Part shown: piece by piece, positions 20,709 through 37,139 of the stretch
How positions within the stretch are numbered: position 1 is the first letter of the stretch
How the letters are laid out: the number at the start of each line of letters is the position of its first letter
Assembly (NCBI GenBank): GCA_050178385.1
Contig: JBFXGD010000014.1
Location: 1 to 39,423, forward strand
Origin: Calditrichaceae bacterium
GTDB lineage: Bacteria; Calditrichota; Calditrichia; Calditrichales; JBFXGD01
Reading direction: 5' to 3'
Length of the DNA: 39,423 nt
Translations under genes and position numbers: made by a program
The notes under the pieces: generated by a model
Told to the model about the DNA's origin: nothing
The model's database searches: none
What the model saw: the letters and a program-made list of their open reading frames with translations, nothing else

Positions 20709-22166
20709 ATGAGTAAATTAGAAATATATAATACATTAAGCAGAAAAAAAGAAACTTTTAAACCGATACATCCGGGTTTTGTCGGTATTTATGTTTGCGG
20801 CCCGACTGTGTACGGACATGCTCATCTGGGGCACGCAAAAAGTTACATCAGTTTTGATATTGTGGTGAGATATCTGCGCTATCTGGATTACAGAGTGCGT
20901 TATGTACAGAATATCACTGATGTCGGTCATCTGGTAAGCGACGCCGATGAAGGTGAGGATAAAATTATCAAACAGGCGAGACTAGAGAAACTTGAACCGA
21001 TGGAAATTGCCGAATTATATACCCGAAGTTATTTTGAAGATATGGATGTTTTAAATGTCCTGCGGCCGGATATATCACCCAGGGCCACAGGTCATATTCC
21101 GGAGCAAATCGATTTGATAAATGACCTTATGGAGAAAGGATTCGCTTACGAATCCGGTGGCAATATCTATTTCGATGTGAGCAAATTCAGTGATTACGGT
21201 AAATTATCCGGCAGGAAGGTCGATGAGCTCATGGCCGGTGTCAGGATTGATCTTAATGATGAAAAAAAACATCCCGCCGATTTCGCGTTATGGAAAAAAG
21301 CGGAAAGCGGACATATTATGCAGTGGAACAGTCCCTGGGGTAAAGGTTATCCGGGATGGCATCTTGAATGTTCATCAATGTCCACTAAATATTTAGGGGA
21401 GACGTTTGATATACATGGCGGTGGTCTGGAAAATATTTTTCCGCATCATGAGTGCGAAATCGCTCAAAGTGAAGCTGCTAACGGAAAGTCCTTCGCGCGC
21501 TATTGGATGCACAACAATATGGTTACCGTCGATGGTGTTAAAATGGGAAAATCTTTGGGGAATTTTATTACCATCAAGGACGCGGTGAAAAAATATCCGC
21601 CACTTGCCATTCGTTTTTTTATCCTGACAAGTCATTACCGTTCGCCCCTCGATTTTAGTGCTCAGGCCTTGGACGCCGCGCAGAAAGGCCTTGAAAAAAT
21701 TCACGGTAACTTTGTAAGAATATCGAAAATTAAAACCACAGATGATTCCGATGGCGGTGAATTCCAAAAGAGCATAGACGCTTACCGCAAGGCATTTGAA
21801 GAAGCAATGAATGATGATTTCAATACGCCGCGCGCGATTGCCGCTCTGTTTGATTTCTTCAGAGATATAAACAGCCGGCTCGATCAGACACGGGACGCCT
21901 TGAATAGGTCTGATGCTGAAAAACTAAATACGATTATCAATAAAACCGCCGGCGATGTATTAGGTCTGCTTCCCGACCGCGATATTCAGGCTGAGCATTC
22001 TGGAAATGGTGATATTTCCGGGATAATGAAGATTATCCTTGATATCAGGCTTAAACTTCGCAAGGAAAAGAATTTTGCCTTATCTGATGAGATCAGAGAC
22101 CGTCTGGCGGATATAAATATTGAAATAAAAGATACTCCCACAGATACGGAGTGGGAACAAAAATAG
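20709..22166 (+). CDS. cysS: Cysteine--tRNA ligase
   Basis: CGPTVY..HLGH, DFALWK, PGWHLECS, FPHHECE, KMGKS. Confidence 0.97.
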   Translation: MSKLEIYNTLSRKKETFKPIHPGFVGIYVCGPTVYGHAHLGHAKSYISFDIVVRYLRYLDYRVRYVQNITDVGHLVSDADEGEDKIIKQARLEKLEPMEIAELYTRSYFEDMDVLNVLRPDISPRATGHIPEQIDLINDLMEKGFAYESGGNIYFDVSKFSDYGKLSGRKVDELMAGVRIDLNDEKKHPADFALWKKAESGHIMQWNSPWGKGYPGWHLECSSMSTKYLGETFDIHGGGLENIFPHHECEIAQSEAANGKSFARYWMHNNMVTVDGVKMGKSLGNFITIKDAVKKYPPLAIRFFILTSHYRSPLDFSAQALDAAQKGLEKIHGNFVRISKIKTTDDSDGGEFQKSIDAYRKAFEEAMNDDFNTPRAIAALFDFFRDINSRLDQTRDALNRSDAEKLNTIINKTAGDVLGLLPDRDIQAEHSGNGDISGIMKIILDIRLKLRKEKNFALSDEIRDRLADINIEIKDTPTDTEWEQK

Positions 22167-22245: not shown

Positions 22246-23982
22246 TTAAAAATTCCTTACAGCTTTATCACGTGAACTTAGTAAAGTCAAAGTTGAATAT
22301 GATGACTTTTCCGGGATCTGGGACTGCATGTAAAGAATGGATTGTTGCAGAATCTGAATCGCGTATTCAGGATTATGAATTCCGCGGCTTCCATCACCCA
22401 AAACGAATGCCAGATTGTAACCTCCGGTTCTCAATATCTGCGCCTGGGTGGTTGGTTCACCCGCGGCTGTAGTATCATTGATGGTTTCAGACAGAGCAGT
22501 AACAATATCCATACCTACCGTATCCAAACCTGCCGTGACCAATTCTGAAGTTAGGTTATCCATCAGACCGTCAATTTCCAGCTGTAAACCTTCGGTTGTG
22601 CCGTCACCATCAAAGTCATTGTTTGCCATAATATCCTCAAAATCACTGACCGTTCCGTGGCATTTCCCGCAGGAGCTTGTAGTCGCTTCAAATGTATGAC
22701 CGGTATTGGCGTTTGGATAAGGAGTGGCGTTCATATGACAGGTTGTACAGCCGTTTTCGATCACATAATGGTTTGTAAATTTGCCGCTGAATTCAAAATC
22801 AAATCCTTCATAAGCGCTGATTCCCGCCAGCATATCACCCTGAGGTGATTCGTGAGGACCAAAATGGGCATAACCGGTCTCAATTTGAGTATCGGCTGAA
22901 CGGCGCGCGTGATGGCACTGTACGCAAAGCTGGCCGTTTCCGGCAATCGCGATGGTCTGAGTTTCCATATTGGCTTCTACGGAAGTGACATCAGCGAGTG
23001 TACGCAACTGGAACGCATTTTCATCACTGTGCGGATTATGACAGGTTGAGCAGGAAACATTGCCGGGATCCGCTGGATCATGAGCAACACCACCACCGAA
23101 TGCGGCTATAAATCCGGAACCGCTATGGCAAGGCTGACAAAAACTGTTTGCGGGCGCACCGTGCGCGGCGGTCGCGGGATCGAAATTATGTTTGGAATCA
23201 ACCCAGTCTGAATTGAATGGATGATGTTCGCCGGAATGGCATGTGGTGCAGTTTTCCGCGCTGATATCAACATTTATAGCTCTGTCCTCAGCGGTGAAGT
23301 CCGGATGTTTTGAACCGGGACCATGGCAGTTTTCGCACTGTACATTTTCAAACATGGCGATTGGCGCGTCATCATATCCCGCATTTCCCGGAACCTGGTC
23401 AAAATCAACCGTATGGCATGGATTACAGTAAGAAGCGGGATGAGCGCTGGCCTGGAGTGTTGCCCAGGCGTGAGCATGACCGGTTTCCTGCCATTCCGCG
23501 GCCTTACCGCTATGGCAGGTGGCGCATTTGGCGCCGCCGACATAGAATGTATCTGTAATGGCGGCATACATTCCGACACCGATATTTCTTGAACCAACTC
23601 CTATATAAGTGCCGTCAGTAATATGCACGGAAATCACATAAGTACCGGCATCATCCGGTGCTTTCCATGTGACTGTATCACCTTCGGTCTTATCAAATTT
23701 TCCATCGTTTGATACCCAGAAGTATTTTAAAGCACCTACTTCGGATACAACATCAGTTTCGGCGGTAAGTGTGATTGTACCTCCGACAGCGATGGAATCC
23801 GGATTTGTAACGATATCATTTACGACAACCGGAATCACATTCACAAATATACTGTCATGAACCGTGACGGTATCCCTTACAGTTACTTCTACAATCTTTT
23901 CCGTTTCGTCTGTACAGCCTCCAAAGAACAGCGTACCAAGAAATAACATTGGCATAACGACAGAAATTAATCTCCTTAACAT
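22246..23982 (-). CDS. Nonaheme cytochrome c lipoprotein with N-terminal Ig/PKD-like domain
   Basis: ATG 23982 after AGGAGGGG; lipobox LFFGG-C23. Nine CxxCH (CATCH, CNPCH, CENCH, CTTCH, CQPCH, CSTCH, CVQCH, CTTCH, CGKCH); C-terminal DGSRGIHNPEY helical region. Confidence 0.92.
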   Translation of the reverse strand: MLRRLISVVMPMLFLGTLFFGGCTDETEKIVEVTVRDTVTVHDSIFVNVIPVVVNDIVTNPDSIAVGGTITLTAETDVVSEVGALKYFWVSNDGKFDKTEGDTVTWKAPDDAGTYVISVHITDGTYIGVGSRNIGVGMYAAITDTFYVGGAKCATCHSGKAAEWQETGHAHAWATLQASAHPASYCNPCHTVDFDQVPGNAGYDDAPIAMFENVQCENCHGPGSKHPDFTAEDRAINVDISAENCTTCHSGEHHPFNSDWVDSKHNFDPATAAHGAPANSFCQPCHSGSGFIAAFGGGVAHDPADPGNVSCSTCHNPHSDENAFQLRTLADVTSVEANMETQTIAIAGNGQLCVQCHHARRSADTQIETGYAHFGPHESPQGDMLAGISAYEGFDFEFSGKFTNHYVIENGCTTCHMNATPYPNANTGHTFEATTSSCGKCHGTVSDFEDIMANNDFDGDGTTEGLQLEIDGLMDNLTSELVTAGLDTVGMDIVTALSETINDTTAAGEPTTQAQILRTGGYNLAFVLGDGSRGIHNPEYAIQILQQSILYMQSQIPEKSSYSTLTLLSSRDKAVRNF

Positions 23983-24051: not shown

Positions 24052-24417
24052 TTAATAATTTAATTTTTTTTCGCCCAGATACCTTTGTAGCTGCTCATGA
24101 AACTCGTTCTGTGCAACAGGTTTCATTAAATAAGCCAGTATTCCCATTGGCAGAGCCTTTTTACATATCGTAATATGTTTATCAGAGAGTACCAGGATCA
24201 CAGGCACCGATCTTTTTAATAATTTTATAATTTTAAGAACATGAATAACCCGTTGTTCCAGTAAATCGATATCGAGAATAACCAGCTCGTAATGATTTGA
24301 AAGAAAACTTTCGAGAAATGTACAACAGGCTCTATAAGACTGGATCTCAAAATTAAAATCCGAATCCGGCTGTCCCTTGAATGTCTCTTCTGCTGTAAGT
24401 ATAATTACATGTTTCAT
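24052..24417 (-). CDS. Atypical stand-alone receiver-domain protein (copy 1)
   Basis: ATG 24417 after AGGA. LVILDIDLL, ILVLS and AYLMKPV receiver pattern; lacks the beta1 DD pair; YRACC. Confidence 0.8.
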   Translation of the reverse strand: MKHVIILTAEETFKGQPDSDFNFEIQSYRACCTFLESFLSNHYELVILDIDLLEQRVIHVLKIIKLLKRSVPVILVLSDKHITICKKALPMGILAYLMKPVAQNEFHEQLQRYLGEKKLNY

Positions 24418-24447: not shown

Positions 24448-24464
24448 TACATAAATTGTGCCAA
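24448..24464 (-). promoter_or_regulatory. Sigma54 (-24/-12) promoter of module 1
   Basis: Minus strand TTGGCACAATTTATGTA: TGGCAC -24 box with correctly spaced TG(T) -12 box. 16/17 identical to the copy at 27398-27414. Confidence 0.75.
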
Positions 24465-24540: not shown

Positions 24541-24556
24541 GAGACAAGATTGTCGC
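24541..24556. promoter_or_regulatory. Palindromic activator site (proximal UAS, module 1)
   Basis: GAGACAAGATTGTCGC, fitting GnGACA-N4-TGTCnC. Confidence 0.7.
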
Positions 24557-24628
24557 GGTAACGGAAGTGAATTATTCTAAATGGTTGTTATTATGGGGTA
24601 TAGCTATTCGTGACAATAAAAAAGTGGT

Positions 24629-24644
24629 GGGACACATTTGTCAC
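24629..24644. promoter_or_regulatory. Palindromic activator site (distal UAS, module 1)
   Basis: GGGACACATTTGTCAC, 88 bp from the proximal site. Confidence 0.68.
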
Positions 24645-24816: not shown

Positions 24817-24849
24817 AAAAAGCCTTTCCGCCCGGAGGCGGAAAGGCTT
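24817..24849 (-). terminator. Intrinsic terminator after the T9SS-tagged cytochrome
   Basis: 13-bp perfect stem AAGCCTTTCCGCC/GGCGGAAAGGCTT with a 4-nt loop; U-tract on the minus strand. Confidence 0.88.
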
Positions 24850-24867: not shown

Positions 24868-26898
24868 TTACTTCATCAATATCATTTTCTTCATCGATTC
24901 AAATTGTTTACCATCGTTAGCTGTTACTGTTAGTCGATAGAAATATACACCGGATGAAAGATTTGACGCGATGAATTTTGTGTCATGCGCGCCGGCATTC
25001 ATGTTATCATCAATAAGAGTAGCCACTTTTTGTCCAAGTGTGTTGTAAACCACGAGATTAACATGACCGGATTTCACAAGTGAGAAATGAATGTTTGTTT
25101 TCGGATTGAACGGGTTTGGATAGTTCTGTGACAATGCATAATTCATTGGAATAATATTTACTTCGTCTGAGATTCCCGTTGCATTTAAGGCAGCGATGGA
25201 TTCATTTAGAAGAGCGATAGTATATGCCGGATTGTGGATACCAAAACTTCCGTCTTCCTCAACAAAGAAATAATTGTAACCGGCCTGAGCTTCTACCAAT
25301 GTGACTGATGAGTCATCAATAGCGACTGTCGGTTCACCTTTTGGGGGGAGAAGAAGCGCGAGTTCTTCCAGCAGTCCCTCTACTTCCTGCTGCAATCCTT
25401 CGGCTGTTCCATCACCGTCATGATCAGCGTTTCCGTTGATGTAGTATTTTTTCTCATCAAATGAAGTTCCCACATTGCCATGGCAATCGGCGCACGCGGC
25501 GACGTTGTCCACACCATCAGGTGTGCTCATTGCAAATGAGTGGGATCCGCTTAATATAACTTCACCGCTTTCATCGGCATGTCCGGGATACATATGACAA
25601 TCAACGCAGGCGTTTTCCGTGGCTGCCAGATGCGGAGATGAAGGTAAATCTTTACCAAAAGTCACCGTATTTGTTCCAATGAGCATATCTCCCTGCAAAC
25701 TGCCATGTGGTCCGAAATGGCTGCTCAGATTAGCCAGATAGTCGTTCGTATAAATCTCCGCATCCTGACGGCTTTTATGGCAGTTCATACAAAGTTTGCC
25801 AAGCCCGCCCTGTGTGACAACTTCACCATTGGTTAAAGTTGCTTCAATCGTTCTTACCTGATGCTCATTTGTCACATTATGCGGATCATGACAGGCCGCG
25901 CAGGTAATAGGCAGGTAATCCGTGTTTATGGGAGTGACACCTTTTAAACTTTGGACAAATCCTATACCTGTATGGCATGGAACGCAGGATTCACGATTGG
26001 CACCGGATGGATAGGTGGTGGCGTTGCCATGCAATGAGACATCCCACTGCTCTGGATAGACATGGTGAGTGCCTGAATCATGGCACCAGGCGCAGTTATC
26101 TGCCTTAAGATCAACAATCATCCTGGCGTCGCTGGTATTGCCGTTATGGCGATCACCGGGACCATGGCAGCTTTCACACTGAATTCTTGCCAGTTTCATT
26201 GAATTTGGATAAAGCGCTTCGAGTGCGTCCCAAGTTCCGGGAGCAAGTGAATCAGGGAATGCCCACACAGAATCAATGTCGTCGATTAGCTGAGTGCGGT
26301 CATCAAAGCCGTCGTTTTTGGCCATTAGATCATAGCCGGTTGTATGGCAGCTGACGCAATCCGGGCCATAATGATCACTGGCGGTTCCCATCATTGCTTC
26401 TTCAAATAACCAATAGTGGCCGGTCTGTTCCCAAGGTGTAACCACATCATCCAAAAATGTATCAGGCCCATGGCAATTGGTACAATTTTCATAAACACCG
26501 ACATATTTGCCGGCATTGATGGTCAGTTCGGCTGAAAATGCTCCGTCGGCGAAAGTTATTTTGTATGTACCGGCGATGTCAGGTGTAAAGACAATAACTT
26601 CTGATGAAGTATCCATTACCGCCATCGCGCCGAAGTCAGCCATTGAACCGTTAGGTTTAACGGTGACGCTCCATACAGGATTTGTCAGACTGGCTCCGCT
26701 AAGCGTTCCCTTTAAATACATCTGTGTCTCAATACCGACATTGTTCAATCCGTTAAAAGCCCGGTCAAATATATCTTCCGTATCAGCAACAACATCACGA
26801 GGCGAGACACCATAGGTTTCCAGTTTCATAGTCTGCGCGAAAACCTGTGCAGCGCAGATCAGAAACATGGCCAGAACTAAAAGTAATTTTTTGTTCAT
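24868..26898 (-). CDS. Nonaheme cytochrome c with Sec signal peptide and C-terminal T9SS type-A sorting (Por secretion tail) domain
   Basis: GGAGGGG RBS; signal peptide ending VFA-Q. Nine CxxCH (CTNCH, CVSCH, CESCH, CAWCH, CVPCH, CAACH, CMNCH, CVDCH, CADCH). Tail YALSQNYPNPFNPKT...VYNTLGQKV...LSSGVYFYRL...KKMILMK. Confidence 0.93.
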   Translation of the reverse strand: MNKKLLLVLAMFLICAAQVFAQTMKLETYGVSPRDVVADTEDIFDRAFNGLNNVGIETQMYLKGTLSGASLTNPVWSVTVKPNGSMADFGAMAVMDTSSEVIVFTPDIAGTYKITFADGAFSAELTINAGKYVGVYENCTNCHGPDTFLDDVVTPWEQTGHYWLFEEAMMGTASDHYGPDCVSCHTTGYDLMAKNDGFDDRTQLIDDIDSVWAFPDSLAPGTWDALEALYPNSMKLARIQCESCHGPGDRHNGNTSDARMIVDLKADNCAWCHDSGTHHVYPEQWDVSLHGNATTYPSGANRESCVPCHTGIGFVQSLKGVTPINTDYLPITCAACHDPHNVTNEHQVRTIEATLTNGEVVTQGGLGKLCMNCHKSRQDAEIYTNDYLANLSSHFGPHGSLQGDMLIGTNTVTFGKDLPSSPHLAATENACVDCHMYPGHADESGEVILSGSHSFAMSTPDGVDNVAACADCHGNVGTSFDEKKYYINGNADHDGDGTAEGLQQEVEGLLEELALLLPPKGEPTVAIDDSSVTLVEAQAGYNYFFVEEDGSFGIHNPAYTIALLNESIAALNATGISDEVNIIPMNYALSQNYPNPFNPKTNIHFSLVKSGHVNLVVYNTLGQKVATLIDDNMNAGAHDTKFIASNLSSGVYFYRLTVTANDGKQFESMKKMILMK

Positions 26899-26973: not shown

Positions 26974-27363
26974 TCATATGTCTTTTTCAAGCCTACTGTT
27001 TCCATGTTGTAAGATCGGATCCAAAATTCTGAATAATTCCTTACCGGAGACCGGTTTTATAAGATAGGAATGGATTCCCAGTGGCAATGCTTGTTTACAG
27101 ATCGAGATGTGTTCTTCCGACAGGATTAGAATAATTACGATAGAATTTTTAATCAGCTTGAGTACGTTAATAAGATGAGTCACCCGTTCCTTTAAAAGAT
27201 CGATATCCAGCATAATCATATCAGTATGCAGGGTCAGAAATCCCTCCATAAGTTCGCAACAGCTCTGATAACAGGTCACTTCAATTTTGCAAAGGCCATC
27301 CAGAGTGCTTTGAAAATCCTCAACTAGTCCGTGCTCGGAGGACAAAACCAGGAGTCTTTTCAT
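26974..27363 (-). CDS. Atypical stand-alone receiver-domain protein (copy 2)
   Basis: ATG 27363 after AAGGGA; MIMLDIDLL, ILILS, SYLIKPV, YQSCC. 40 of 78 residues identical to copy 1 in an ungapped hand alignment. Confidence 0.8.
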   Translation of the reverse strand: MKRLLVLSSEHGLVEDFQSTLDGLCKIEVTCYQSCCELMEGFLTLHTDMIMLDIDLLKERVTHLINVLKLIKNSIVIILILSEEHISICKQALPLGIHSYLIKPVSGKELFRILDPILQHGNSRLEKDI

Positions 27364-27397: not shown

Positions 27398-27414
27398 TAC
27401 ATATATTGTGCCAA
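27398..27414 (-). promoter_or_regulatory. Sigma54 (-24/-12) promoter of module 2
   Basis: Minus strand TTGGCACAATATATGTA. Confidence 0.75.
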
Positions 27415-27489: not shown

Positions 27490-27505
27490 GAGACAATTTT
27501 GTCGC
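27490..27505. promoter_or_regulatory. Palindromic activator site (proximal UAS, module 2)
   Basis: GAGACAATTTTGTCGC, 14/16 identical to 24541-24556. Confidence 0.7.
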
Positions 27506-27578
27506 ATAATATTTTCTTATTTATTGATAAGTTATTGTTTATTAATGAGATACCAAACCGTAACCAACCTGCGACATT

Positions 27579-27594
27579 GGGACAAAATTGTCCC
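27579..27594. promoter_or_regulatory. Palindromic activator site (distal UAS, module 2)
   Basis: GGGACAAAATTGTCCC with perfect 7-bp arms, 89 bp from the proximal site. Confidence 0.7.
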
Positions 27595-27745: not shown

Positions 27746-29221
27746 ATGTTCAAATCCCTGAAAACATTGTTTATTTCTTTTACTACGGTTTTAATCCTTG
27801 TGACTGTCGGCATTCCAACCTATGTGTTGATTTCAAAATTGAGAGATAATTTTCAGGAAACATATAATTATATGGTAAAGTTGACCGTTGATATGATTCG
27901 CTGTGATATTTCACATGCCATGATGGACGGCAAACCTGAAAAACTATCATTTTTTGTAAACAAAATATCGCAGCTGAGTAGTGTGTACAGGGTTAGTATT
28001 ATTAATCCTGAGGGCGTTGTGACTCACTCAAATCATACTTCAGTGATAAGCAAAAATATCAACGATGTACAAGACCACGAAAATCTTACAATAGAACCGG
28101 ACACATCACTCACCCAATTTTATCATAACGGGTCGGTCTATTCCGCCATGTTTCCGATCATTAATAAAAAAGAATGCCATACCTGTCATGATGCCGGCAA
28201 AAAGATTATCGGTTTTGTTGATGTTGATCTCAATCTGACTAAGGCGGAATACAGATTCAGGGATACAGTGAGAATGACTCTGGTCAGCGGCGTTTTATTG
28301 ATTCTGATCCTTGGTAGTGTTTTGTATATCATGTTCAACCGCTATATCAACCGACCCATTAAGGACCTTGCAGGAGCCATGGACGAGGTTGAAAAAGGAA
28401 ATTTTACGGTCCGGTTATATGTAAGCAGATCCGCAGAGATCAAAACACTTCAAAACCAGTTCAATCATATGGTTAAAAAACTTGACGAATCCCGGAAGAA
28501 GATAGATGATTACCATCTGGAGCAGTTACAAAGGGCTGATCGTCTTGTAACACTGGGTGAATTGACGGCAGAACTTGCTCATGAAATCAATAATCCATCA
28601 GGGATAATACTTACAAGGGCTGATTATCTAAGAAGTGTATTTCATGATCTGGATAATTACAAGGAATATGAAGAGGATCTGGACGCCATTGTTAATCAGA
28701 TCGAAAAAGTTTCAAAAATAACCTCCAGCATATTAAAATACAGTAGAAAATTACCCAAGAATTTTCAGTCGATTAACCTTAAGGAAACATTACTTGAGAG
28801 TTTGAAAGTATTACAGCCGCGTCTTGATAAATATGATATTAAAGTAAACATTATTGATGACGGCGGAGACTGGATCAGATGGGGCGAGGCCATGCAGATG
28901 GAGCAGGCATTCACCAATCTTATTAACAATGCCGTTGACGCTTCTGGAAAGGGGTCTTCTATTGATGTGATTTTTAAACATAAGGAGCATGAAAACGGAA
29001 AAATAATTGAGATAGAAATCAACGATAATGGCAGCGGAATCGGGCCCAAAAATATATATCAGATATTTGAACCGTTTTATTCATCCAAACCGCCCGGCAA
29101 AGGCACGGGGCTTGGATTATATATTGTAAATAATATCATAAAAAATCATAATGGCAAAATAGAAGTTTCCAGTGAACTAGATAAAGGGACTTCATTTAAA
29201 ATAACATTTCCGGCGGATTAA
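27746..29221 (+). CDS. Membrane sensor histidine kinase with periplasmic heme c motif, HAMP, HisKA and HATPase domains
   Basis: Two TMs flank a domain containing CHTCH (28175-28189). HAMP RPIKDL..EIKTL; H-box LAHEINNP; NLINNAVDA; DNGSGI; FEPFYSSK..GTGLGL. Confidence 0.93.
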   Translation: MFKSLKTLFISFTTVLILVTVGIPTYVLISKLRDNFQETYNYMVKLTVDMIRCDISHAMMDGKPEKLSFFVNKISQLSSVYRVSIINPEGVVTHSNHTSVISKNINDVQDHENLTIEPDTSLTQFYHNGSVYSAMFPIINKKECHTCHDAGKKIIGFVDVDLNLTKAEYRFRDTVRMTLVSGVLLILILGSVLYIMFNRYINRPIKDLAGAMDEVEKGNFTVRLYVSRSAEIKTLQNQFNHMVKKLDESRKKIDDYHLEQLQRADRLVTLGELTAELAHEINNPSGIILTRADYLRSVFHDLDNYKEYEEDLDAIVNQIEKVSKITSSILKYSRKLPKNFQSINLKETLLESLKVLQPRLDKYDIKVNIIDDGGDWIRWGEAMQMEQAFTNLINNAVDASGKGSSIDVIFKHKEHENGKIIEIEINDNGSGIGPKNIYQIFEPFYSSKPPGKGTGLGLYIVNNIIKNHNGKIEVSSELDKGTSFKITFPAD

Positions 29222-29222
29222 A

Positions 29223-30596
29223 ATGATTCGTTTAATGATCATTGACGATGAAAAAGAGATGCTGATCAGCCTGAAGAAAGTGCTTTCCAGGAACAATCAG
29301 TATGAAATTGAACTTTTTCAGGATGGCAGAAAAGCCCTGGATGCCCTACTCACCGAAAAGTATGACGGTGTGATTTGCGATCTGAAGATGCCTTCCATTT
29401 CGGGCCTGGACATTCTAAAAAAGGTTAAGTCAGATTACCCTGATATCTTTGTGATTGTCATATCCGGATATGGTACCATAGAATCGAGTGTGGAAGCGAT
29501 GCGTCTGGGCGCATTCGATTTTATCGAGAAACCTTTTCCATCAAAGAAATTGATGGATTCACTTTCCAGGGCGTTAAACGGTAGAATCGGATCAAATTCC
29601 GATTCTTTGGAAATCGACCAGCTCCAAAAAGAATTTCCGGATATCATTTTTATTAGTGAAAAAATGAAAGACATCCTTGTGATGGTCAGAAAAGTGGCAT
29701 TGGGGAAGGCGAATGTTTTGATAACCGGTGAGAGCGGAACGGGAAAAGAACTGATTGCCAGAAGTATCCACCGCATGAGTAAGCGTTCTGAATTTCCGTT
29801 TATTCCTGTGAATTGCGCAGCGCTGCCGGAAAATTTATTTGAAAGCGAACTTTTTGGATATGAAAAAGGGGCTTTTACCGGCGCCAACAGGACAAAGCCG
29901 GGACTTGTGGAGTTTTCTGATAAAGGATCATTTTTTCTTGATGAAATAGGAGATTTAGGGCTTAATCTTCAGGTGAAATTGCTCAGAATGCTCGAAGAGC
30001 GAAAAATCCGCCGTGTTGGCGGCAAGGAAGAAATAGCGGTTGATGTGAGAGTGATCAGCGCGACAAATAAAAATCTGGAAGTCATAGTTAGTGAGAAAGG
30101 GCTTCGAAAAGATCTACTATACCGGTTGAACACCATTAACATTGAAGTGCCCCCGCTGAGAGAGCGGCCGGAAGATATCCAGTGTCTCGCGGAATATTTT
30201 CTTGATGAGTTGAGAAGAAAAGAGGATAAAACGATCTATAAAATCGCTGAAGATGCCATGGAGTCATTGACAAATTATCACTGGCCGGGGAACGTCCGTG
30301 AACTGCAGAATATCGTGACCAGGGCATTTTATCTTTGCCAGGGAAATGATATTCGATTGGAAGATCTCCCGCCCGTTCTCTATAAAAATGCTGAAGCGAT
30401 TTTGGACAAGATTTTACATATGCCGTACCGGGAAGCAAAAGAGCAGGTTCTTGAAACATTTGAACAAAAATATATCACAAATTATTTAAAAAAATATAAT
30501 GGAAATATAACACGGGCCGCGGACGCTTGCGGAATAGACCGGCGGACCATGCACAGGTTAATAAATAAATACGGTATCATCTATTCCGATAAATAA
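29223..30596 (+). CDS. NtrC-family sigma54-dependent response regulator (REC-AAA+-Fis HTH)
   Basis: IIDDE, CDLKMP, GESGTGKE, intact GAFTGA (29868-29885), LDEIGD, WPGNVRELQN, NITRAADACGIDRRTMHR. Confidence 0.96.
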   Translation: MIRLMIIDDEKEMLISLKKVLSRNNQYEIELFQDGRKALDALLTEKYDGVICDLKMPSISGLDILKKVKSDYPDIFVIVISGYGTIESSVEAMRLGAFDFIEKPFPSKKLMDSLSRALNGRIGSNSDSLEIDQLQKEFPDIIFISEKMKDILVMVRKVALGKANVLITGESGTGKELIARSIHRMSKRSEFPFIPVNCAALPENLFESELFGYEKGAFTGANRTKPGLVEFSDKGSFFLDEIGDLGLNLQVKLLRMLEERKIRRVGGKEEIAVDVRVISATNKNLEVIVSEKGLRKDLLYRLNTINIEVPPLRERPEDIQCLAEYFLDELRRKEDKTIYKIAEDAMESLTNYHWPGNVRELQNIVTRAFYLCQGNDIRLEDLPPVLYKNAEAILDKILHMPYREAKEQVLETFEQKYITNYLKKYNGNITRAADACGIDRRTMHRLINKYGIIYSDK

Positions 30597-31556: not shown

Positions 31557-31820
31557 ATGGTTATGGAAAGGAAAATCTTGGACAAACCATTTGTTAAAGT
31601 TGAACCTGAGCTATGTAAGGGTTGTGGTCTCTGTATAGACGCCTGTCCGCCTGATGTTTTGGAGTTTAATTCCAAATTTAATAGCAAAGGGTATCATTTT
31701 GCCTATTATTTGGGTGAGAACTGCACCGGATGCGGGGTCTGTTTTTATGCCTGCCCTGAGCCTGAAGCGATAATTGTGTATAAAAAGGGATATGAAATGC
31801 TTGCTGAGGAGGTGGCCTGA
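31557..31820 (+). CDS. 2[4Fe-4S] ferredoxin / delta subunit of 2-oxoacid:ferredoxin oxidoreductase
   Basis: [12 protein letters not shown] and [15 protein letters not shown] overlaps the next ATG. Confidence 0.9.
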
Positions 31821-32866
31821 TGTCGAAGATATTGCTGAAAGGGAATGACGCTGTTGTTCGGGGAGCCATACTCGCCGGATGCCGGGTATATTTCGGCTAT
31901 CCGATTACACCCGCAAGCGAAATAGCGGAAACAGCGGCGAAATATATGCCGGCCGTTGGAGGTACATTTTTACAGGCTGAGAGTGAAGTAGCTGCGATAA
32001 ACATGGTTTACGGCGCAGCCAGCGGCGGTGTGCGATCGATGACTGCCTCTTCAAGTCCGGGAATCAGTCTGAAGCAGGAAGGCGTCTCTTACGCCGCCGG
32101 GGCTGAATTACCCTGTGTCATTGTCGACGTAATGCGTGGCGGCCCGGGTCTTGGAAATATTGCTCCTGAACAGTCAGATTACAATCAGGTGGTTAAAGGC
32201 GGGGGGCATGGAAATTATAAATGTCCGGTTCTGGCGCCAAACAGCGCACAGGAGATGTCTGATCTGACTCAGCTGGCATTTGAACTGGCTGAAAAATATC
32301 GTACTCCTGTGTATGTGCTTGCGGATGGTTATACCGGGCAAATGATGGAGCCGGTTGAATTTGGTGAACCGGTCACAAAATTGCCCCGTCATGAATGGGC
32401 GCTTTATGCCGATAAAGAAAGTAAGAAAAATCTTATTTCGAGTATATATCTTGATCCGGAAGAACTGGAAGAACATAACAGGCGTTTACAGGATAAATAT
32501 CGCAAGGTTGAGGAAAATGAACTTAGGAAAGAAGAATTCATGCTTGAAGATGCCGAATATGTGGTTATGGGTTATGGAATTATTTCCAGAATTCTCAAAA
32601 CTGTTGTCGAGAAGCTTCGGAAAGATGGCGTGAAAATTGGTCTTCTGCGGCCGATCACATTATTCCCTTACCCATCAGAACGAATAAACGAACTGTCCCG
32701 CAAGGTCAAGAAATTTCTTGTTGTGGAATTAAGTAACGGTCAGATGGTGGATGATGTCCGGTTAGCGGTGAGCGGAAACTGTCCGGTCGAGTTTTATAAC
32801 AGGATGGGCGGAGTTGTCCCTTCAACTGAAGAATTGCTGGAACGTACCAAATTACTCCTGAAGTAA
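31820..32866 (+). CDS. vorB: 2-oxoacid:ferredoxin oxidoreductase alpha subunit (VorB-like)
   Basis: [42 protein letters not shown]. Confidence 0.85.
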
Positions 32867-32890
32867 TGAAAATATAAGAGGTAGATAAAT

Positions 32891-34330
32891 ATGGCATCGA
32901 AAGTATTGCAAAAACCGACAAGTTTTTATGAACAATATGATAGAAATCCAAGTTCGGACAAAAAAATGCCTCATTACTGTCCGGGATGCGGTCATGGTAA
33001 TGTTCACAAATTTATTGCTGAGGCTCTGGATGATTTCGAAGTGGCGGACAAGACAATCCTGATCAGTCCTGTAGGATGCAGTGTGTTCGCCTACTATTAT
33101 TTTAATACCGGTAATATTCAGGCTGCGCACGGTCGCGCGCCCGCAGTAGCCACCGGTATAAAACGCGCTCATCCTGAGAGTGTTGTTATCAGTTATCAGG
33201 GAGACGGCGACCTTGCCGCTATCGGAACAGCTGAAATCCTTCATGCGGCAAACCGTGGTGAAAACATCACTGTCTTCTTTGTCAATAACGCTATTTACGG
33301 TATGACCGGCGGACAGATGGCTCCGACAACTCTGGTAGACCAGCGTACGACTACAACGCCCCGCGGCCGTAATCCTCATAACGAAGGTTATCCCATAAAG
33401 GTAGCGGAATTAATCAGTCAGCTTCAGGCTCCGGTTTATGTGGAACGTGTGGCTCTCTTTGATAATAAACACAGGGCTCAGGCCAGACTGGCAGTGCGGA
33501 AGGCTCTTAAAAATCAGATAAACAATCTTGGTTTTTCATTGATAGAAATATTGTCACCATGTCCATCCGGGTGGAAAATGGATCCCGTGGATTCAATGAA
33601 ATGGATAAAAGATGTTATGCTCCCGCAGTTCCCGTTAGGGGTTTACCGTGATCTTACAAAAGAAGTCGAACCCTATAATTTTGAGCAGATCAATCCATCG
33701 GCTGATGAAATTAAAAAACTGATTGACATTGTACCGGACACCGACAAAAATTTCGGGAAACCCGAAATTCCGGTGAAATATCAGAATCCCGCGATTAAGG
33801 TGGCGGGTTTTGGAGGTCAGGGCGTACTGCTGTTGGGCGCGGCAATCGCACAGGCGGGTATGCTGGCCGATTATCATGTTTCATGGCTTCCTTCATACGG
33901 ACCGGAGATGCGCGGCGGTACAGCAAACTGTCATGTAAATATAAGAGACATTGAAGTGGGTTCACCGATGGTAAGTAATCCAACCGTCCTTATCGCGTTA
34001 AACAGGCCTTCGCTTGAAAAGTTTGAAGCGGACGTGACTGCAGGCGGACTGATCATTTATGACAGCTCGCTTATCGATATCGATGTGAAACGCAAAGATG
34101 TGGAAGTAATGCCCATTCCTGTGACTCAGATGGCTGACGAACTGGGAAATACGCGTATGGCCAACATGATTACCATGGCAGCTTATGTCGCTTATACCGG
34201 ATTGTTTACAAAGGAAACCCTTTACGAAACATTGAAGACAGCGATCAAACGTAAAAAATTAATCGATATGAATAAAAAAGCGGTTGATGCCGGTTTTGAA
34301 TTTGGATTAAAACATAAAAACAAGAAATAA
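32891..34330 (+). CDS. 2-oxoacid:ferredoxin oxidoreductase fused beta (TPP-binding) + gamma subunit (VorA-like)
   Basis: HYCPGCGHG, GDGD...NNAIYGMTGGQ, SPCP, then gamma domain AGFGGQG, PSYGPEMRGGTA. Confidence 0.88.
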   Translation: MASKVLQKPTSFYEQYDRNPSSDKKMPHYCPGCGHGNVHKFIAEALDDFEVADKTILISPVGCSVFAYYYFNTGNIQAAHGRAPAVATGIKRAHPESVVISYQGDGDLAAIGTAEILHAANRGENITVFFVNNAIYGMTGGQMAPTTLVDQRTTTTPRGRNPHNEGYPIKVAELISQLQAPVYVERVALFDNKHRAQARLAVRKALKNQINNLGFSLIEILSPCPSGWKMDPVDSMKWIKDVMLPQFPLGVYRDLTKEVEPYNFEQINPSADEIKKLIDIVPDTDKNFGKPEIPVKYQNPAIKVAGFGGQGVLLLGAAIAQAGMLADYHVSWLPSYGPEMRGGTANCHVNIRDIEVGSPMVSNPTVLIALNRPSLEKFEADVTAGGLIIYDSSLIDIDVKRKDVEVMPIPVTQMADELGNTRMANMITMAAYVAYTGLFTKETLYETLKTAIKRKKLIDMNKKAVDAGFEFGLKHKNKK

Positions 34331-34353
34331 CGATTCCCCCCAAAAGAATCGGG

Positions 34354-34393
34354 AAGCGGTGTGAGATATGTTTTTCTTACGCCGCTTTTTTTT
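34354..34393 (+). terminator. Intrinsic terminator after the oxidoreductase operon
   Basis: Stem AAGCGGTGTGAGA/TCTTACGCCGCTT (with G-U pairs) ending in an 8-T tract. Confidence 0.8.
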
Positions 34394-34534
34394 GATATGG
34401 ATATATTCCAATATATGGGAAAATGTTCACTAAAAACTTCATAAATGAGAAATCACCCGCCTGTATATTTTTTAAAATTCCGATGAAAGCTTGATATTAC
34501 AGTATTAAAATGGTGAGGCGCTTGTCTTCGGCAC

Positions 34535-34550
34535 TGGTACAATATTTGTA
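34535..34550 (+). promoter_or_regulatory. Putative sigma54 promoter of the rseC-rnf operon
   Basis: TGGTACAATATTTGTA, 14/16 identical to the module 2 promoter TGGCACAATATATGTA, 40 bp upstream of ATG 34590. Confidence 0.5.
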
Positions 34551-34589
34551 TTTTGATCCTGAACTTATAAATAAAGACAGGATTTGCTA

Positions 34590-35012
34590 ATGACGTTGAG
34601 CTGTGTATATGGCAGAGTGGCGGAGATCAATGATACGACTTATACAATCGAGCTGGAGGAAAACAGCGCCTGCGGCAGCTGCGGAATGCAGGGGATGTGT
34701 TCGAAAGAATCTATTCATATTGAAAAAAAACAGGTAGCATTCCCTTTAAAACAATCTCAGAGAGTACGCCTGGAATTTGACCGGGTTATTCAGACCTCCG
34801 TAATTTTATATCTAATACCCGTTTTTCTTTTTTTTGCGGGGATCGCTCTGGCGCGAATCTTATTCGACTCCGCGAATGAACCGGTACAATTAGGTTTCGG
34901 CATTGCGGGTTTAGTCATTTCTTTATTCCTGATCCGGTTTATAGACCATCGCTACAGTGATAAAAATGATACGATTCAAATTAAACTAATTGAGAAGTAC
35001 CAGGAGGATTAA
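34590..35012 (+). CDS. RseC/MucC (SoxR-reducing system) family membrane protein
   Basis: SACGSCGMQGMC, LYLIP and two TMs; first gene of the rnf cluster. Start is ATG 34590 or TTG 34584. Confidence 0.82.
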   Translation: MTLSCVYGRVAEINDTTYTIELEENSACGSCGMQGMCSKESIHIEKKQVAFPLKQSQRVRLEFDRVIQTSVILYLIPVFLFFAGIALARILFDSANEPVQLGFGIAGLVISLFLIRFIDHRYSDKNDTIQIKLIEKYQED

Positions 35013-35821
35013 TGCCTGCGGAATTATTGATTCCCGGAATGATATTGGGGGGATTTGCTCTTCTCTCATCGACCGGCCTGCTTATCGCCTCGAAAAAATT
35101 TCATGTGGATGAAGATCCGAGAATAGAACTGATAACCAACCTTCTGCCCGGAGCGAATTGCGGAGGATGCGGATTTGCCGGATGTACAAATTATGCCGAA
35201 AATGTTGTTACCCAAATGAAGATTGATTCTCCCTGCCCGGTGGCCGAATCGGAAATCATGAAAGAAATTGGAAAGATTCTCGGGCTGGATGTCAGTGTGG
35301 GGACAAAACAAGTTGCCTCTCTCATGTGCAACGGGACAAATCATAATTCCCCTTCCGTCATGGACTATAAAGGTATTCAGGATTGCTGGGCAATGTCGCT
35401 TGTTGCAGACAGCTCAAAATCATGCGTGTTTGCCTGTATGGGGCTTGGTTCCTGTGTGAGAGCCTGTCCTTTTGGCGCCATGAGGATTGAAGAGGGGATT
35501 GTCGTCATTGACGATCAGGTTTGCAGCGGCTGCGGAATCTGTATTGACAGCTGCCCAAAACATCTCCTGCATATGCGGCCTGTCTCAAAAAATATTACCG
35601 TAACATGCAGCAATACCGATAAAGGCGCGGACGCGAAAAGGGCGTGCGAAACAGCCTGCATCGGATGCCAGAAATGTGTTAAAGTATGTGAGCATGAGGC
35701 AATCACCGTTGAAAATTTTCTCGCCAAAATAAATTATGAAAATTGTGATCTGTGCGGAAAATGCGTAGAGGCATGCCCGACCGACTCGATTGAGATCAGG
35801 AGGCTCTATGCAGATGCTTAA
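35012..35821 (+). CDS. rnfB: Rnf electron transport complex subunit B
   Basis: N-terminal TM, LPGANCGGCGFAGC, multiple CxxCxxCxxxCP motifs. Confidence 0.93.
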   Translation: MPAELLIPGMILGGFALLSSTGLLIASKKFHVDEDPRIELITNLLPGANCGGCGFAGCTNYAENVVTQMKIDSPCPVAESEIMKEIGKILGLDVSVGTKQVASLMCNGTNHNSPSVMDYKGIQDCWAMSLVADSSKSCVFACMGLGSCVRACPFGAMRIEEGIVVIDDQVCSGCGICIDSCPKHLLHMRPVSKNITVTCSNTDKGADAKRACETACIGCQKCVKVCEHEAITVENFLAKINYENCDLCGKCVEACPTDSIEIRRLYADA

Positions 35822-37139
35822 AACCTTCGCAATGGGCGGGGTTCATCCTCCTCAGGAAAAACGGTCTTCAGATCAGTCCATAATATACGGAAATATCCCA
35901 GAGCAGCTTTGGATCCCGGTAAATCAGCATATCGGAAAACCGTGTGAAGTTGTTGTGGAAAGAAGGGCCGTTGTAAAAAGGGGTGATATCCTCGCTAAAT
36001 CAACCGGATATGTATCTTCAAACGTACACGCGCCTGTTGACGGGATAGTGGATAAAATTATACGATTTCCACAGCTGGGCGGGCAGTCCGGTGATTGTAT
36101 TTTACTCAAACCCAGTGAACCGGGCCGGAGTTATAAAGAGATCATTGAATCAGAAAATACTACTGATATTGATATTGATTCGATGACGCCGAAACTGATT
36201 AGATCCAAAATAGAAGAAGCCGGTATTGTGGGTATGGGCGGGGCGGGATTTCCGACACATGTAAAATTATCACCGCCGGCGGATAAGGTCATCGATACGC
36301 TGATCATAAACGGCGCGGAATGTGAACCTTACATCACTTCTGATCACCGGGTAATGCTTGAAAAATCAGATGAATTATTTTTGGGCATTCAGGTACTTCA
36401 AAAAATGTTTAACGGGGTGCCGGTTTATATTGGTGTTGAAGTAAATAAACCGGATGCTATTCGCCTCCTTGAGCGTAAATCAAAAAATTACAACAATATT
36501 TTTATTTCCCCTTTAAAAGTCAAATATCCGCAGGGTGGTGAGAAACAGCTGATCAAGGCAATTTTAGACAGAGAAGTGCCTTCAAAAAATCTTCCGATGG
36601 ATGTGGGGGTTGTGGTTCAGAATGTTTCTACAGTGATAGCAATCCATGATGCTGTTTATTATAATCGACCGCTTACCGGCCGCGTGGTGACAATTGCCGG
36701 TAATCTTGTTCATCATCCCGGGAATATTATGCTTCCCGTCGGCACACCGGTTTCAACCATTATAAAAGATTTTGAAATTGATTCCGATCGCGTAAGAATG
36801 TTCATAAGCGGCGGACCAATGATGGGTAAAACATCATTTTCTTTTGAAAGCCCCATCACCAAAACCACGTCTGCTTTACTTTTCTTTGATGAATCGAATT
36901 TTGTTAATCGCGTTGAAAATCCATGTATACGCTGCGGGAGCTGTATCACAGTTTGTCCGATGGGGCTCACCCCGGTCACATATACGGATATGATCCGCGC
37001 GAACAAGATGGATAAATCCGCAAAGGAAGCGATTCTTGATTGCATTGAATGCGGAAGCTGTTCCTATAATTGTCCGGCAAACCGAAAGCTCGTTCATTGG
37101 ATGCGTCTTGGAAAAAATATGATCAGGAGAGAAAATTGA
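35808..37139 (+). CDS. rnfC: Rnf electron transport complex subunit C
   Basis: ATG 35808 after AGGAGG; GGVHP, GMGGAGFPTHVK, NGAECEPY, YPQGGEKQL, GGPMMG, two 4Fe-4S motifs. Confidence 0.95.
   Translation: MQMLKTFAMGGVHPPQEKRSSDQSIIYGNIPEQLWIPVNQHIGKPCEVVVERRAVVKRGDILAKSTGYVSSNVHAPVDGIVDKIIRFPQLGGQSGDCILLKPSEPGRSYKEIIESENTTDIDIDSMTPKLIRSKIEEAGIVGMGGAGFPTHVKLSPPADKVIDTLIINGAECEPYITSDHRVMLEKSDELFLGIQVLQKMFNGVPVYIGVEVNKPDAIRLLERKSKNYNNIFISPLKVKYPQGGEKQLIKAILDREVPSKNLPMDVGVVVQNVSTVIAIHDAVYYNRPLTGRVVTIAGNLVHHPGNIMLPVGTPVSTIIKDFEIDSDRVRMFISGGPMMGKTSFSFESPITKTTSALLFFDESNFVNRVENPCIRCGSCITVCPMGLTPVTYTDMIRANKMDKSAKEAILDCIECGSCSYNCPANRKLVHWMRLGKNMIRREN

Follow-up and report, generated by a model that had tools for sequence, protein, structure and literature searches.

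The window analysed here is a 39,423-nt stretch of contig JBFXGD010000014.1 from a Calditrichaceae genome (assembly GCA_050178385.1, 94% complete, 320 contigs). Its minus strand encodes a nine-heme cytochrome c that ends in a predicted type A sorting domain of a type IX secretion system (T9SS). A preliminary description of this gene, made from the sequence alone, had reported a Sec signal peptide, nine CxxCH motifs and a terminal YPNPFNP...LSSGVYFYRL...KKMILMK domain at about 24868-25140. All three features were recovered, the last of them at 24871-25143. Absent from that description was a second nine-heme gene, a paralog that lies in tandem with the first and has no tail (Table 1).

The cytochrome carries nine CxxCH motifs and no more (residues 139, 181, 241, 269, 305, 333, 370, 431 and 469), and their number is not due to chance because 549 of the 562 genome open reading frames (ORFs) of at least 500 aa are devoid of CxxCH. 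Its N-terminus, read from the sequence rather than by a predictor, combines a basic start, a hydrophobic stretch and VFA|Q, with Q22 as the expected mature N-terminus (kept in 103/110 homologs). An AlphaFold2 model built from 110 homologs (mean predicted local distance difference test, pLDDT, 91.6; hemes not in the model) gives the order of the domains as a signal helix, an all-beta domain (22-130) barely covered by the fold searches, the heme core, closing helices (502-573), a disordered linker and a seven-strand domain. Residues 575-583 are the sole stretch with pLDDT below 50. The nearest homolog, labelled Calditrichaceae, is 92% identical.

Table 1. Features of the nonaheme locus, with positions in the window
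Feature	Position	Strand	Basis
Gene, nine-heme cytochrome c with predicted type A T9SS tail, 676 aa	24868..26898	(-)	ORF, motif count, profile matches
Predicted Sec/signal peptidase I-type signal peptide, residues 1-21	26836..26898	(-)	Sequence; model helix 2-20
N-terminal all-beta domain, residues 22-130	26509..26835	(-)	Model strands 23-130
Predicted OcwA/OmhA-type nonaheme core and C-terminal helices, residues 131-574	25177..26508	(-)	Profile, fold, alignment
Flexible linker, residues 575-585, candidate PorU cleavage region	25144..25176	(-)	Low pLDDT
Predicted type A T9SS C-terminal sorting domain, residues 586-676, seven strands	24871..25143	(-)	Profiles and model
Terminator-like hairpin and T run right behind the cytochrome gene	24817..24849	(-)	Sequence
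Tandem paralog, tail-less nine-heme cytochrome, 578 aa, lipoprotein signal (Cys at nt 23916)	22246..23982	(-)	Motif scan
Stand-alone receiver-domain protein upstream of the tailed cytochrome, 129 aa (likely ATG)	26974..27363	(-)	
Stand-alone receiver-domain protein upstream of the paralog, 121 aa (likely ATG)	24052..24417	(-)	
Sigma-54-type -24/-12 element, unit 1	27398..27414	(-)	
Sigma-54-type element, unit 2, near-identical to unit 1	24448..24464	(-)	
Pair of 16-bp palindromes 89 bp apart (27490-27505, 27579-27594), candidate activator sites	27490..27594	(.)	
Pair of 16-bp palindromes 88 bp apart (24541-24556, 24629-24644), candidate activator sites	24541..24644	(.)	
Divergent HAMP sensor histidine kinase, one CxxCH (residue 144) in the sensor domain	27746..29221	(+)	
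Sigma-54-dependent response regulator (receiver, AAA+, HTH)	29223..30596	(+)	

The sorting tail and the nonaheme core

Within the terminal domain, YPNPFNP begins at residue 593 and LSSGVYFYRL at residue 647, and the C-terminus reads KKMILMK. A comparison with TIGR04183, proposed earlier as a check, gave 39.4 bits against a cut-off of 23, and PF18962 was matched with 38.4 bits (cut-off 27). The seven strands of the model fall within residues 588-674, and K671 in the last strand is invariant (110/110 homologs); a last-strand lysine is named as a feature of T9SS tails in a passage of PMC11285876. A separate FlgD-like domain was rejected, as PF13860 (FlgD_ig) is not listed for the cytochrome at E ≤ 0.001; the same family cross-matches the tail of this genome's PorU and those of many tailed hydrolases. 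A single-sequence structure model of the lone tail was poor (pLDDT 45.7) and was not used. Profiles and model together indicate that the protein ends in a T9SS sorting domain of type A and not in an FlgD domain standing alone. A motif scan of the genome recovered 35 tailed proteins, this cytochrome alone bearing heme, and those scanned further (20/35) include a subtilase, an amylase, GH31 and GH26 enzymes, a nuclease, an esterase and adhesin-like proteins.

As for the heme core, a single-sequence search of the PDB returned 6I5B as the sole match. This is OcwA, a nine-heme reductase at the surface of Thermincola in which hemes 2 and 5 are open (PMC6703420). A profile search again placed 6I5B first (E 2e-19), with NrfA and 6QVM next, the latter being OmhA, a surface protein enriched on ferrihydrite (PMC7829351). 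The top two Foldseek matches were OcwA (E 6e-8) and OmhA (E 3e-7), with template modelling (TM) scores by query of 0.37 and 0.35, and the VIA fold comparison gave Z 15.1 for OmhA and Z 14.8 for OcwA, rows covering the tail only reaching Z 9-10.7. H282 and H381, reported as catalytic in OcwA in bioRxiv 2022.02.24.481543, align with H279 and H398 of the cytochrome (by sequence alignment only), which are kept in 105/110 and 109/110 homologs, respectively. Seven other histidines outside the motifs (161, 251, 290, 340, 423, 453 and 555) are each conserved in 109-110 of the 110 homologs; since seven is also the number needed for seven six-coordinate hemes, this suggests that these residues may serve as ligands and that ligation may be all-His.

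The protein had at first been set beside MtrC and OmcA of Shewanella, a comparison with the wrong family. Membership of the MtrC/OmcA decahemes was rejected because there are nine hemes and not ten and TIGR03507 is not listed, the only match on that side being a local one to PF22113 at residues 179-310. Membership of the NrfA/octaheme nitrite reductases was rejected as well: a scan of the full 676-aa protein found no CxxC motif followed by a residue other than His, hence no CxxCK. Profile, fold and both catalytic histidines argue that the core is OcwA/OmhA-like and not MtrC-like. With a sorting tag at its C-terminus, the cytochrome is therefore likely to reside at the cell surface, and the presence of the same tail on polymer-degrading hydrolases, together with the surface location of the best solved matches of the core, counts in favour of export.

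Distribution of the family and its terminal modules

The core was matched by 840 proteins among 8000 candidates scored. The tail, called with a profile made from 33 non-heme tails of this genome, is present at the end of 116 of the 120 top homologs, two of the four exceptions being labelled partial. The family occurs in 42/86 Calditrichota genomes, and across 30 Calditrichota loci the tail is carried by 13 of 14 close forms (the frame of the other ends early) and by none of 16 paralog-type forms. In the Ignavibacteria, 83 of 151 genomes have the family and the best 30 matches are all tailed. A search of genome contigs for related loci was dominated by unrelated tails and covered the heme core in 2/72 loci.

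The tandem paralog is 33% identical to the tailed cytochrome, and its top 120 homologs comprise no tailed protein (0/120) and 102 with a lipobox, as called by a heuristic. Acidic residues follow its lipoprotein cysteine without forming an exact K-(D/E)2. As a lead only, they recall the lipoprotein export signal described for Bacteroidota (PMC5080379).

In a profile search of 1.84 billion representatives, 1313 clusters were found at E ≤ 1e-30, and the best 150 of these divide into 67 with a type A tail, 20 with a lipobox and 63 with neither (some of them fragments). The endings of 133 full-core proteins include an F/Y-R-V tail in 12, a W-x-x-Y-like tail in 11 and a type B T9SS tail in a single protein. 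The last of these, P0051, joins an OcwA-like core to a tail that matches TIGR04131 with 35.3 bits (cut-off 35). A tree of 51 hand-picked rows, obtained by a quick search with FastTree and a quick IQ-TREE run, places this type B protein inside the clade of the query (Shimodaira-Hasegawa-like approximate likelihood ratio test, SH-aLRT, 100) and one type A protein among the F/Y-R-V proteins (support 95). We read the tails as having been swapped to suit the host, hosts being identified for a minority of these proteins. PorU was not found in the one genome tested that has an F/Y-R-V homolog.

The other endings form groups of their own. DTDGDG repeats combined with an F/Y-R-V ending are seen in the nonaheme homologs L005:9667-14167, P0242, P0265-P0269, P0277, P0299 and P0300, and further homologs terminate in a tail that is W-x-x-Y-like or rich in Trp. 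None of the three is named by an NCBIfam model, and a search of genome G098 with the 60-aa non-T9SS tail of L005 matched the L005 protein itself and nothing else. These tails may be sorting signals of secretion systems not yet known. A separate group (P0002, P0003, P0053, P0057, P0107, P0241-P0247) contains two or three tandem cores with 15-24 hemes, several of its members being T9SS-tailed.

Proposed export, electron supply and regulation

The host encodes much of the expected machinery. The checks proposed in the preliminary description for sprA, porV and porU were positive, all three exceeding their NCBIfam cut-offs together with PorQ: SprA (2066 aa) scored 885 bits against 200, PorU, with its His/Cys motifs, 817 against 420, PorV 273 against 250 and PorQ 229 against 220. 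In its genomic part, the contrary outcome envisaged there, a genome lacking the translocon and a protein kept in the periplasm with an intact tail that is just an FlgD-like Ig domain, is not what was found, given the presence of SprA, PorV and PorU and the missing PF13860 match. Phylum-wide, SprA occurs in 83/86 genomes and PorV in 84/86, rising to 53/53 among high-quality genomes; PorV is 54-95% identical across the phylum, and PorU was found in 13/13 Calditrichota and 13/13 Ignavibacteria genomes picked. Heme maturation genes of the ccm type were also confirmed, with CcmB/C/E/F-type genes clustered on contig C116. The search for porK-N had the opposite result, GldK/L/M/N, the ring and motor on which cargo release depends in the T9SSs studied so far, not being recognisable in the genome. 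Calditrichota and Ignavibacteria retain a SprA, PorV and PorU translocon/sortase without a recognisable motor, an apparently motor-less T9SS.

Export of the cytochrome by a T9SS-like machine is probable. Surface delivery by a type IV filament/secretin machine, as for MtrC/OmcA via the type II secretion system (T2SS) in Shewanella, with the tail incidental, is very improbable. A locus of this kind does exist on contig C17 (L176:8737-18139), with PilT, a secretin, a PilM-like protein, pilins, PilC/GspF and a likely prepilin peptidase. However, its ATPase is of the PilT family (over cut-off), its secretin fits PilQ better than GspD (both below cut-off), and retention of the tail in nearly all of the top homologs would be left unexplained.

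Other genes of the host touch on the secretion system. Behind porV on contig C12 (L109:8721-16038) come an M6-like protease, inactivated and T9SS-tailed (it exceeds the cut-off of NF052323), and a 1047-aa TolB-like propeller protein, both of which are candidates for lineage-specific T9SS parts. Extra PorV-family genes occur on C49, C72, C232 and C149 (L116-L119), each beside large tailed proteins, and one of them adjoins a second C25 peptidase, PorU2-like, of 1664 aa.

With regard to the source of electrons, the genome encodes 27 proteins with at least three CxxCH motifs, and a large non-heme protein stands between multiheme genes in clusters on C7, C4 and C84. The C7 protein has as its nearest Atlas cluster one named porin (score 0.99) and no Pfam or NCBIfam match; it is porin-like by cluster name. 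The porin-like protein on C4 is a weaker lead. The C7 operon (L110:7343-17383) consists of a rhodanese lipoprotein, a 9-heme protein, the porin-like protein, a 12-heme protein, and then cytochrome-b fusions with 11 and 19 hemes and a lipoprotein with 3 hemes; the C84 cluster (L112) has 20 and 22 hemes, and the C4 cluster is L111. The earlier statement that no porin lies in the window was borne out by a scan of 36 of its ORFs. In five of 16 relatives chosen for long contigs, the nonaheme gene has as same-strand neighbours a C7 porin homolog and genes for 11-14-heme proteins. At L208, the tailed nonaheme adjoins the C7 operon itself (porin 45% identical); at L209, the porin near the tailed nonaheme is split in two frames, 6 kb away; at L218, the tailed nonaheme is accompanied by a weak porin homolog (E 7e-11); and at L213 and L221, the nonaheme is of the lipoprotein form and directly upstream of the porin. 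The L218 locus, from Ignavibacteria, also has a second T9SS-tailed cytochrome (L218:5438-8134, six hemes, 899-aa frame) between nonaheme and porin. Systems of the pcc type are predicted for Caldithrix and Ignavibacteriales in PMC6137239.

Both nonaheme genes may be under common control. Each is preceded by a receiver-only gene, a sigma-54-type element and a palindrome pair. The elements emerged when the two upstream regions were set side by side; when the window was scanned with a strict sigma-54 consensus, hits were at chance level (5 against 5.6 expected). The palindrome pattern, drawn from these sites, has four genome matches, all here, as against 1-2 in shuffles. Independent support comes from a survey from which three loci with short flanks were dropped: in the 800 nt upstream, the sigma-54 motif was found in the right orientation at 16/27 Calditrichota and 6/29 Ignavibacteria loci and never on the opposite strand (0; 0.1 expected), and the palindromes at 12/27 and 2/29, respectively. 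The heme-motif kinase and the sigma-54 regulator are kept at 7/16 extended loci. On sequence grounds, both nonaheme genes are placed behind putative sigma-54-type promoters beside a heme-motif kinase. The C7 operon has a sigma-54 site, and the palindrome was not found there. In the surroundings, cysS (window 20709-22166) flanks the locus here, in a same-genus genome and at several Ignavibacteria loci (L126, L127, L130-L133), and beyond the two-component genes, at 31820-39286, lie 2-oxoacid:ferredoxin oxidoreductase genes and an rseC-rnfBCDGE operon, that is, ordinary anaerobic energy metabolism.

Taking export and role together, we favour, with some reserve, the reading that the cytochrome is delivered by the T9SS and serves a porin-cytochrome conduit as its outer terminal reductase. 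The protein would be exported by Sec and cleaved before Q22, and would receive its hemes in the periplasm from the Ccm system I. Its tail would then be recognised by PorV/SprA, and the folded protein would leave without a GldLM-type motor. PorU would cut the linker (575-585), and the cytochrome would be anchored at the surface or released. Electrons would arrive via a C7-type porin and periplasmic multihemes and would be passed to Fe(III) oxides, quinones/humics or flavins outside, hemes 2 and 5 being the open sites. Both nonaheme genes would be turned on by the heme-motif kinase and the sigma-54 activator, and the paralog would be the lipid-anchored counterpart of the tailed cytochrome. The broadest form of this proposal, held tentatively and at somewhat less than an even chance, is that in Calditrichota, Ignavibacteria, KSB1 and Fidelibacterota, deep-branching relatives of the Bacteroidota, a motor-less T9SS threads the fully heme-loaded nonaheme through SprA and fixes it on the surface as the terminal reductase of a porin-cytochrome conduit; as part of it, the OcwA core would move between proteins as a surface module and acquire the kind of sorting tail in use in each host.

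Several observations weigh against the favoured reading. On the side of export, GldM, GldL and GldN gave no match in the host genome, the GldN search having no positive control, and the GldK match is a 302-aa FGE-family protein below cut-off; very divergent GldK/L/M/N may escape these searches. GldL was found in 0/26 Calditrichota and Ignavibacteria genomes against 7/9 controls (the two negative controls are labelled Chitinophaga-like). GldM exceeded its cut-off in 0/16 Calditrichota genomes, where one partial 262-aa frame was seen, and in 1/13 others, a Flavobacteriales control. The PorZ-like protein is full length and yet scores 186 bits, below the cut-off of 260. In the Bacteroidia, where the T9SS is proven, the family occurs in 1/401 genomes, as a 357-aa frame. 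Moreover, Flavobacterium johnsoniae cargo stalls on the translocon in the absence of the motor, as described in PMC10994853. The lack of a recognisable GldK/L/M/N in the lineages that carry the family speaks for a rival reading, in which the tail is a real fold of the C-terminal domain (CTD) type, a motor-less system does not move so bulky a holo-protein, and the cytochrome stays in the periplasm as a reductase or relay, where it may be attached to the outer membrane. The literature search found no paper showing T9SS export in Calditrichota or Ignavibacteria, and the tail fold taken alone is a generic Ig sandwich with many ties at Z 9-10.7. Such a location is nonetheless improbable, given the near universality of SprA, PorV and PorU and the conservation of PorV across the phylum, the polymer-degrading hydrolases that bear the same tail, and the several clades that replace the tail with other terminal modules instead of plainly losing it. 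As to size, the lumen of SprA is about 70 Å. The OcwA dimer measures 180 x 81 x 45 Å (PMC6703420).

On the side of function, the likeness to OcwA is distant (TM 0.37/0.50, about 20-26% identity), the NrfA superfamily consists mostly of enzymes for soluble substrates (bioRxiv 2022.02.24.481543), there is no porin homolog at 11/16 extended loci nor at this locus, and Fe(III) reduction is given as untested in Caldithrix in the relevant passage of PMC6137239. The cytochrome could be exported and yet act mainly as a soluble-substrate enzyme or shuttle, for the reduction or detoxification of nitrite, hydroxylamine or nitric oxide outside the cell, or for electron uptake. The retained open-site histidines and a heme-motif kinase suited to gas or redox sensing would agree with such a role, as would OcwA itself, which, besides iron oxide, electrodes and shuttles, slowly reduces nitrite and also turns over hydroxylamine (PMC6703420). 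We consider it unlikely, given a nitrite kcat of OcwA of only 1 per min (PMC6703420), the lack of CxxCK, the separate periplasmic-type octaheme and HAO-like enzymes encoded in the genome, and the porin-cytochrome operon linkage in five of the relatives.

The tailed nonaheme is real and widespread, and what is new is the combination of two known systems. Literature searches pairing T9SS/Por secretion with multiheme cytochromes found no paper describing it. In term searches, a 2024 review of T9SS functions mentions neither 'cytochrome' nor 'heme', PMC11285876, PMC10434189 and PMC12133095 were negative on this subject, and the C. abyssi genome paper has no occurrence of 'secretion'. If true, the T9SS would join T2SS/lipoprotein display and Gram-positive wall display as a means of placing respiratory cytochromes outside, and an OcwA core with a TIGR04183 signature would be a simple marker of extracellular respiration among the uncultured bacteria that abound in sediment and groundwater. 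If the motor-less version is true, extracellular electron-transfer chains would be assembled by a route that is new, and SprA/PorV/PorU would seem able to export large folded cargo in the absence of GldLM. A basic question on the T9SS is thereby made testable, namely secretion by SprA-PorV-PorU without the GldLM motor, with a coloured and easily tracked cargo.

Comparison with known systems

The closest relatives of the core are OcwA and OmhA, a type described from a handful of Gram-positive sequences, with just 2 and 4 close sequences given in bioRxiv 2022.02.24.481543, as against the 1313 clusters found here. Like OcwA of Thermincola potens JR, the cytochrome has nine CxxCH motifs, c554-like and NrfA-like halves and C-terminal helices, the two superposing at 4.1 root-mean-square deviation (rmsd) over 335 residues. 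Of the His-His pairs of OcwA (first His H281 and H380), the first is kept (H278, 91/110) and the second is P397-H398 in the cytochrome. OcwA differs in having one His/Met heme (heme 9), where all-His ligation is predicted for the cytochrome, and in having no diderm host, no N-terminal beta domain and no T9SS tail. OmhA of Carboxydothermus ferrireducens superposes at an rmsd of 7.4 over 351 residues (99-576), and differs by its eleven hemes, a Gram-positive S-layer, the absence of a link to a porin complex and the absence of a T9SS tail.

With the porin-cytochrome conduits (Pcc of Geobacter, MtrCAB of Shewanella), the locus family shares a porin flanked by multihemes, on C7 here and beside the nonaheme in 5/16 relatives. 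In those conduits, the outer cytochrome is a lipoprotein, exported by the T2SS in Shewanella, whereas here it would be OcwA-type, in a tailed or a lipoprotein form. Finally, like the type A cargo of Bacteroidota (TIGR04183/PF18962; the CTDs of RgpB, PorU and mirolase), the cytochrome has a signal peptide, a linker, a seven-strand end and a last-strand lysine. Its modelled tail compares with the PorU CTD (6za2) at Z 10.1, rmsd 2.2, over 88 residues with 23% identity, tied with generic Ig folds, and with the mirolase CTD (8qb1) at Z 9.4. Unlike that cargo, the passenger here is a covalent multiheme redox protein, in a host without recognisable GldK/L/M/N.

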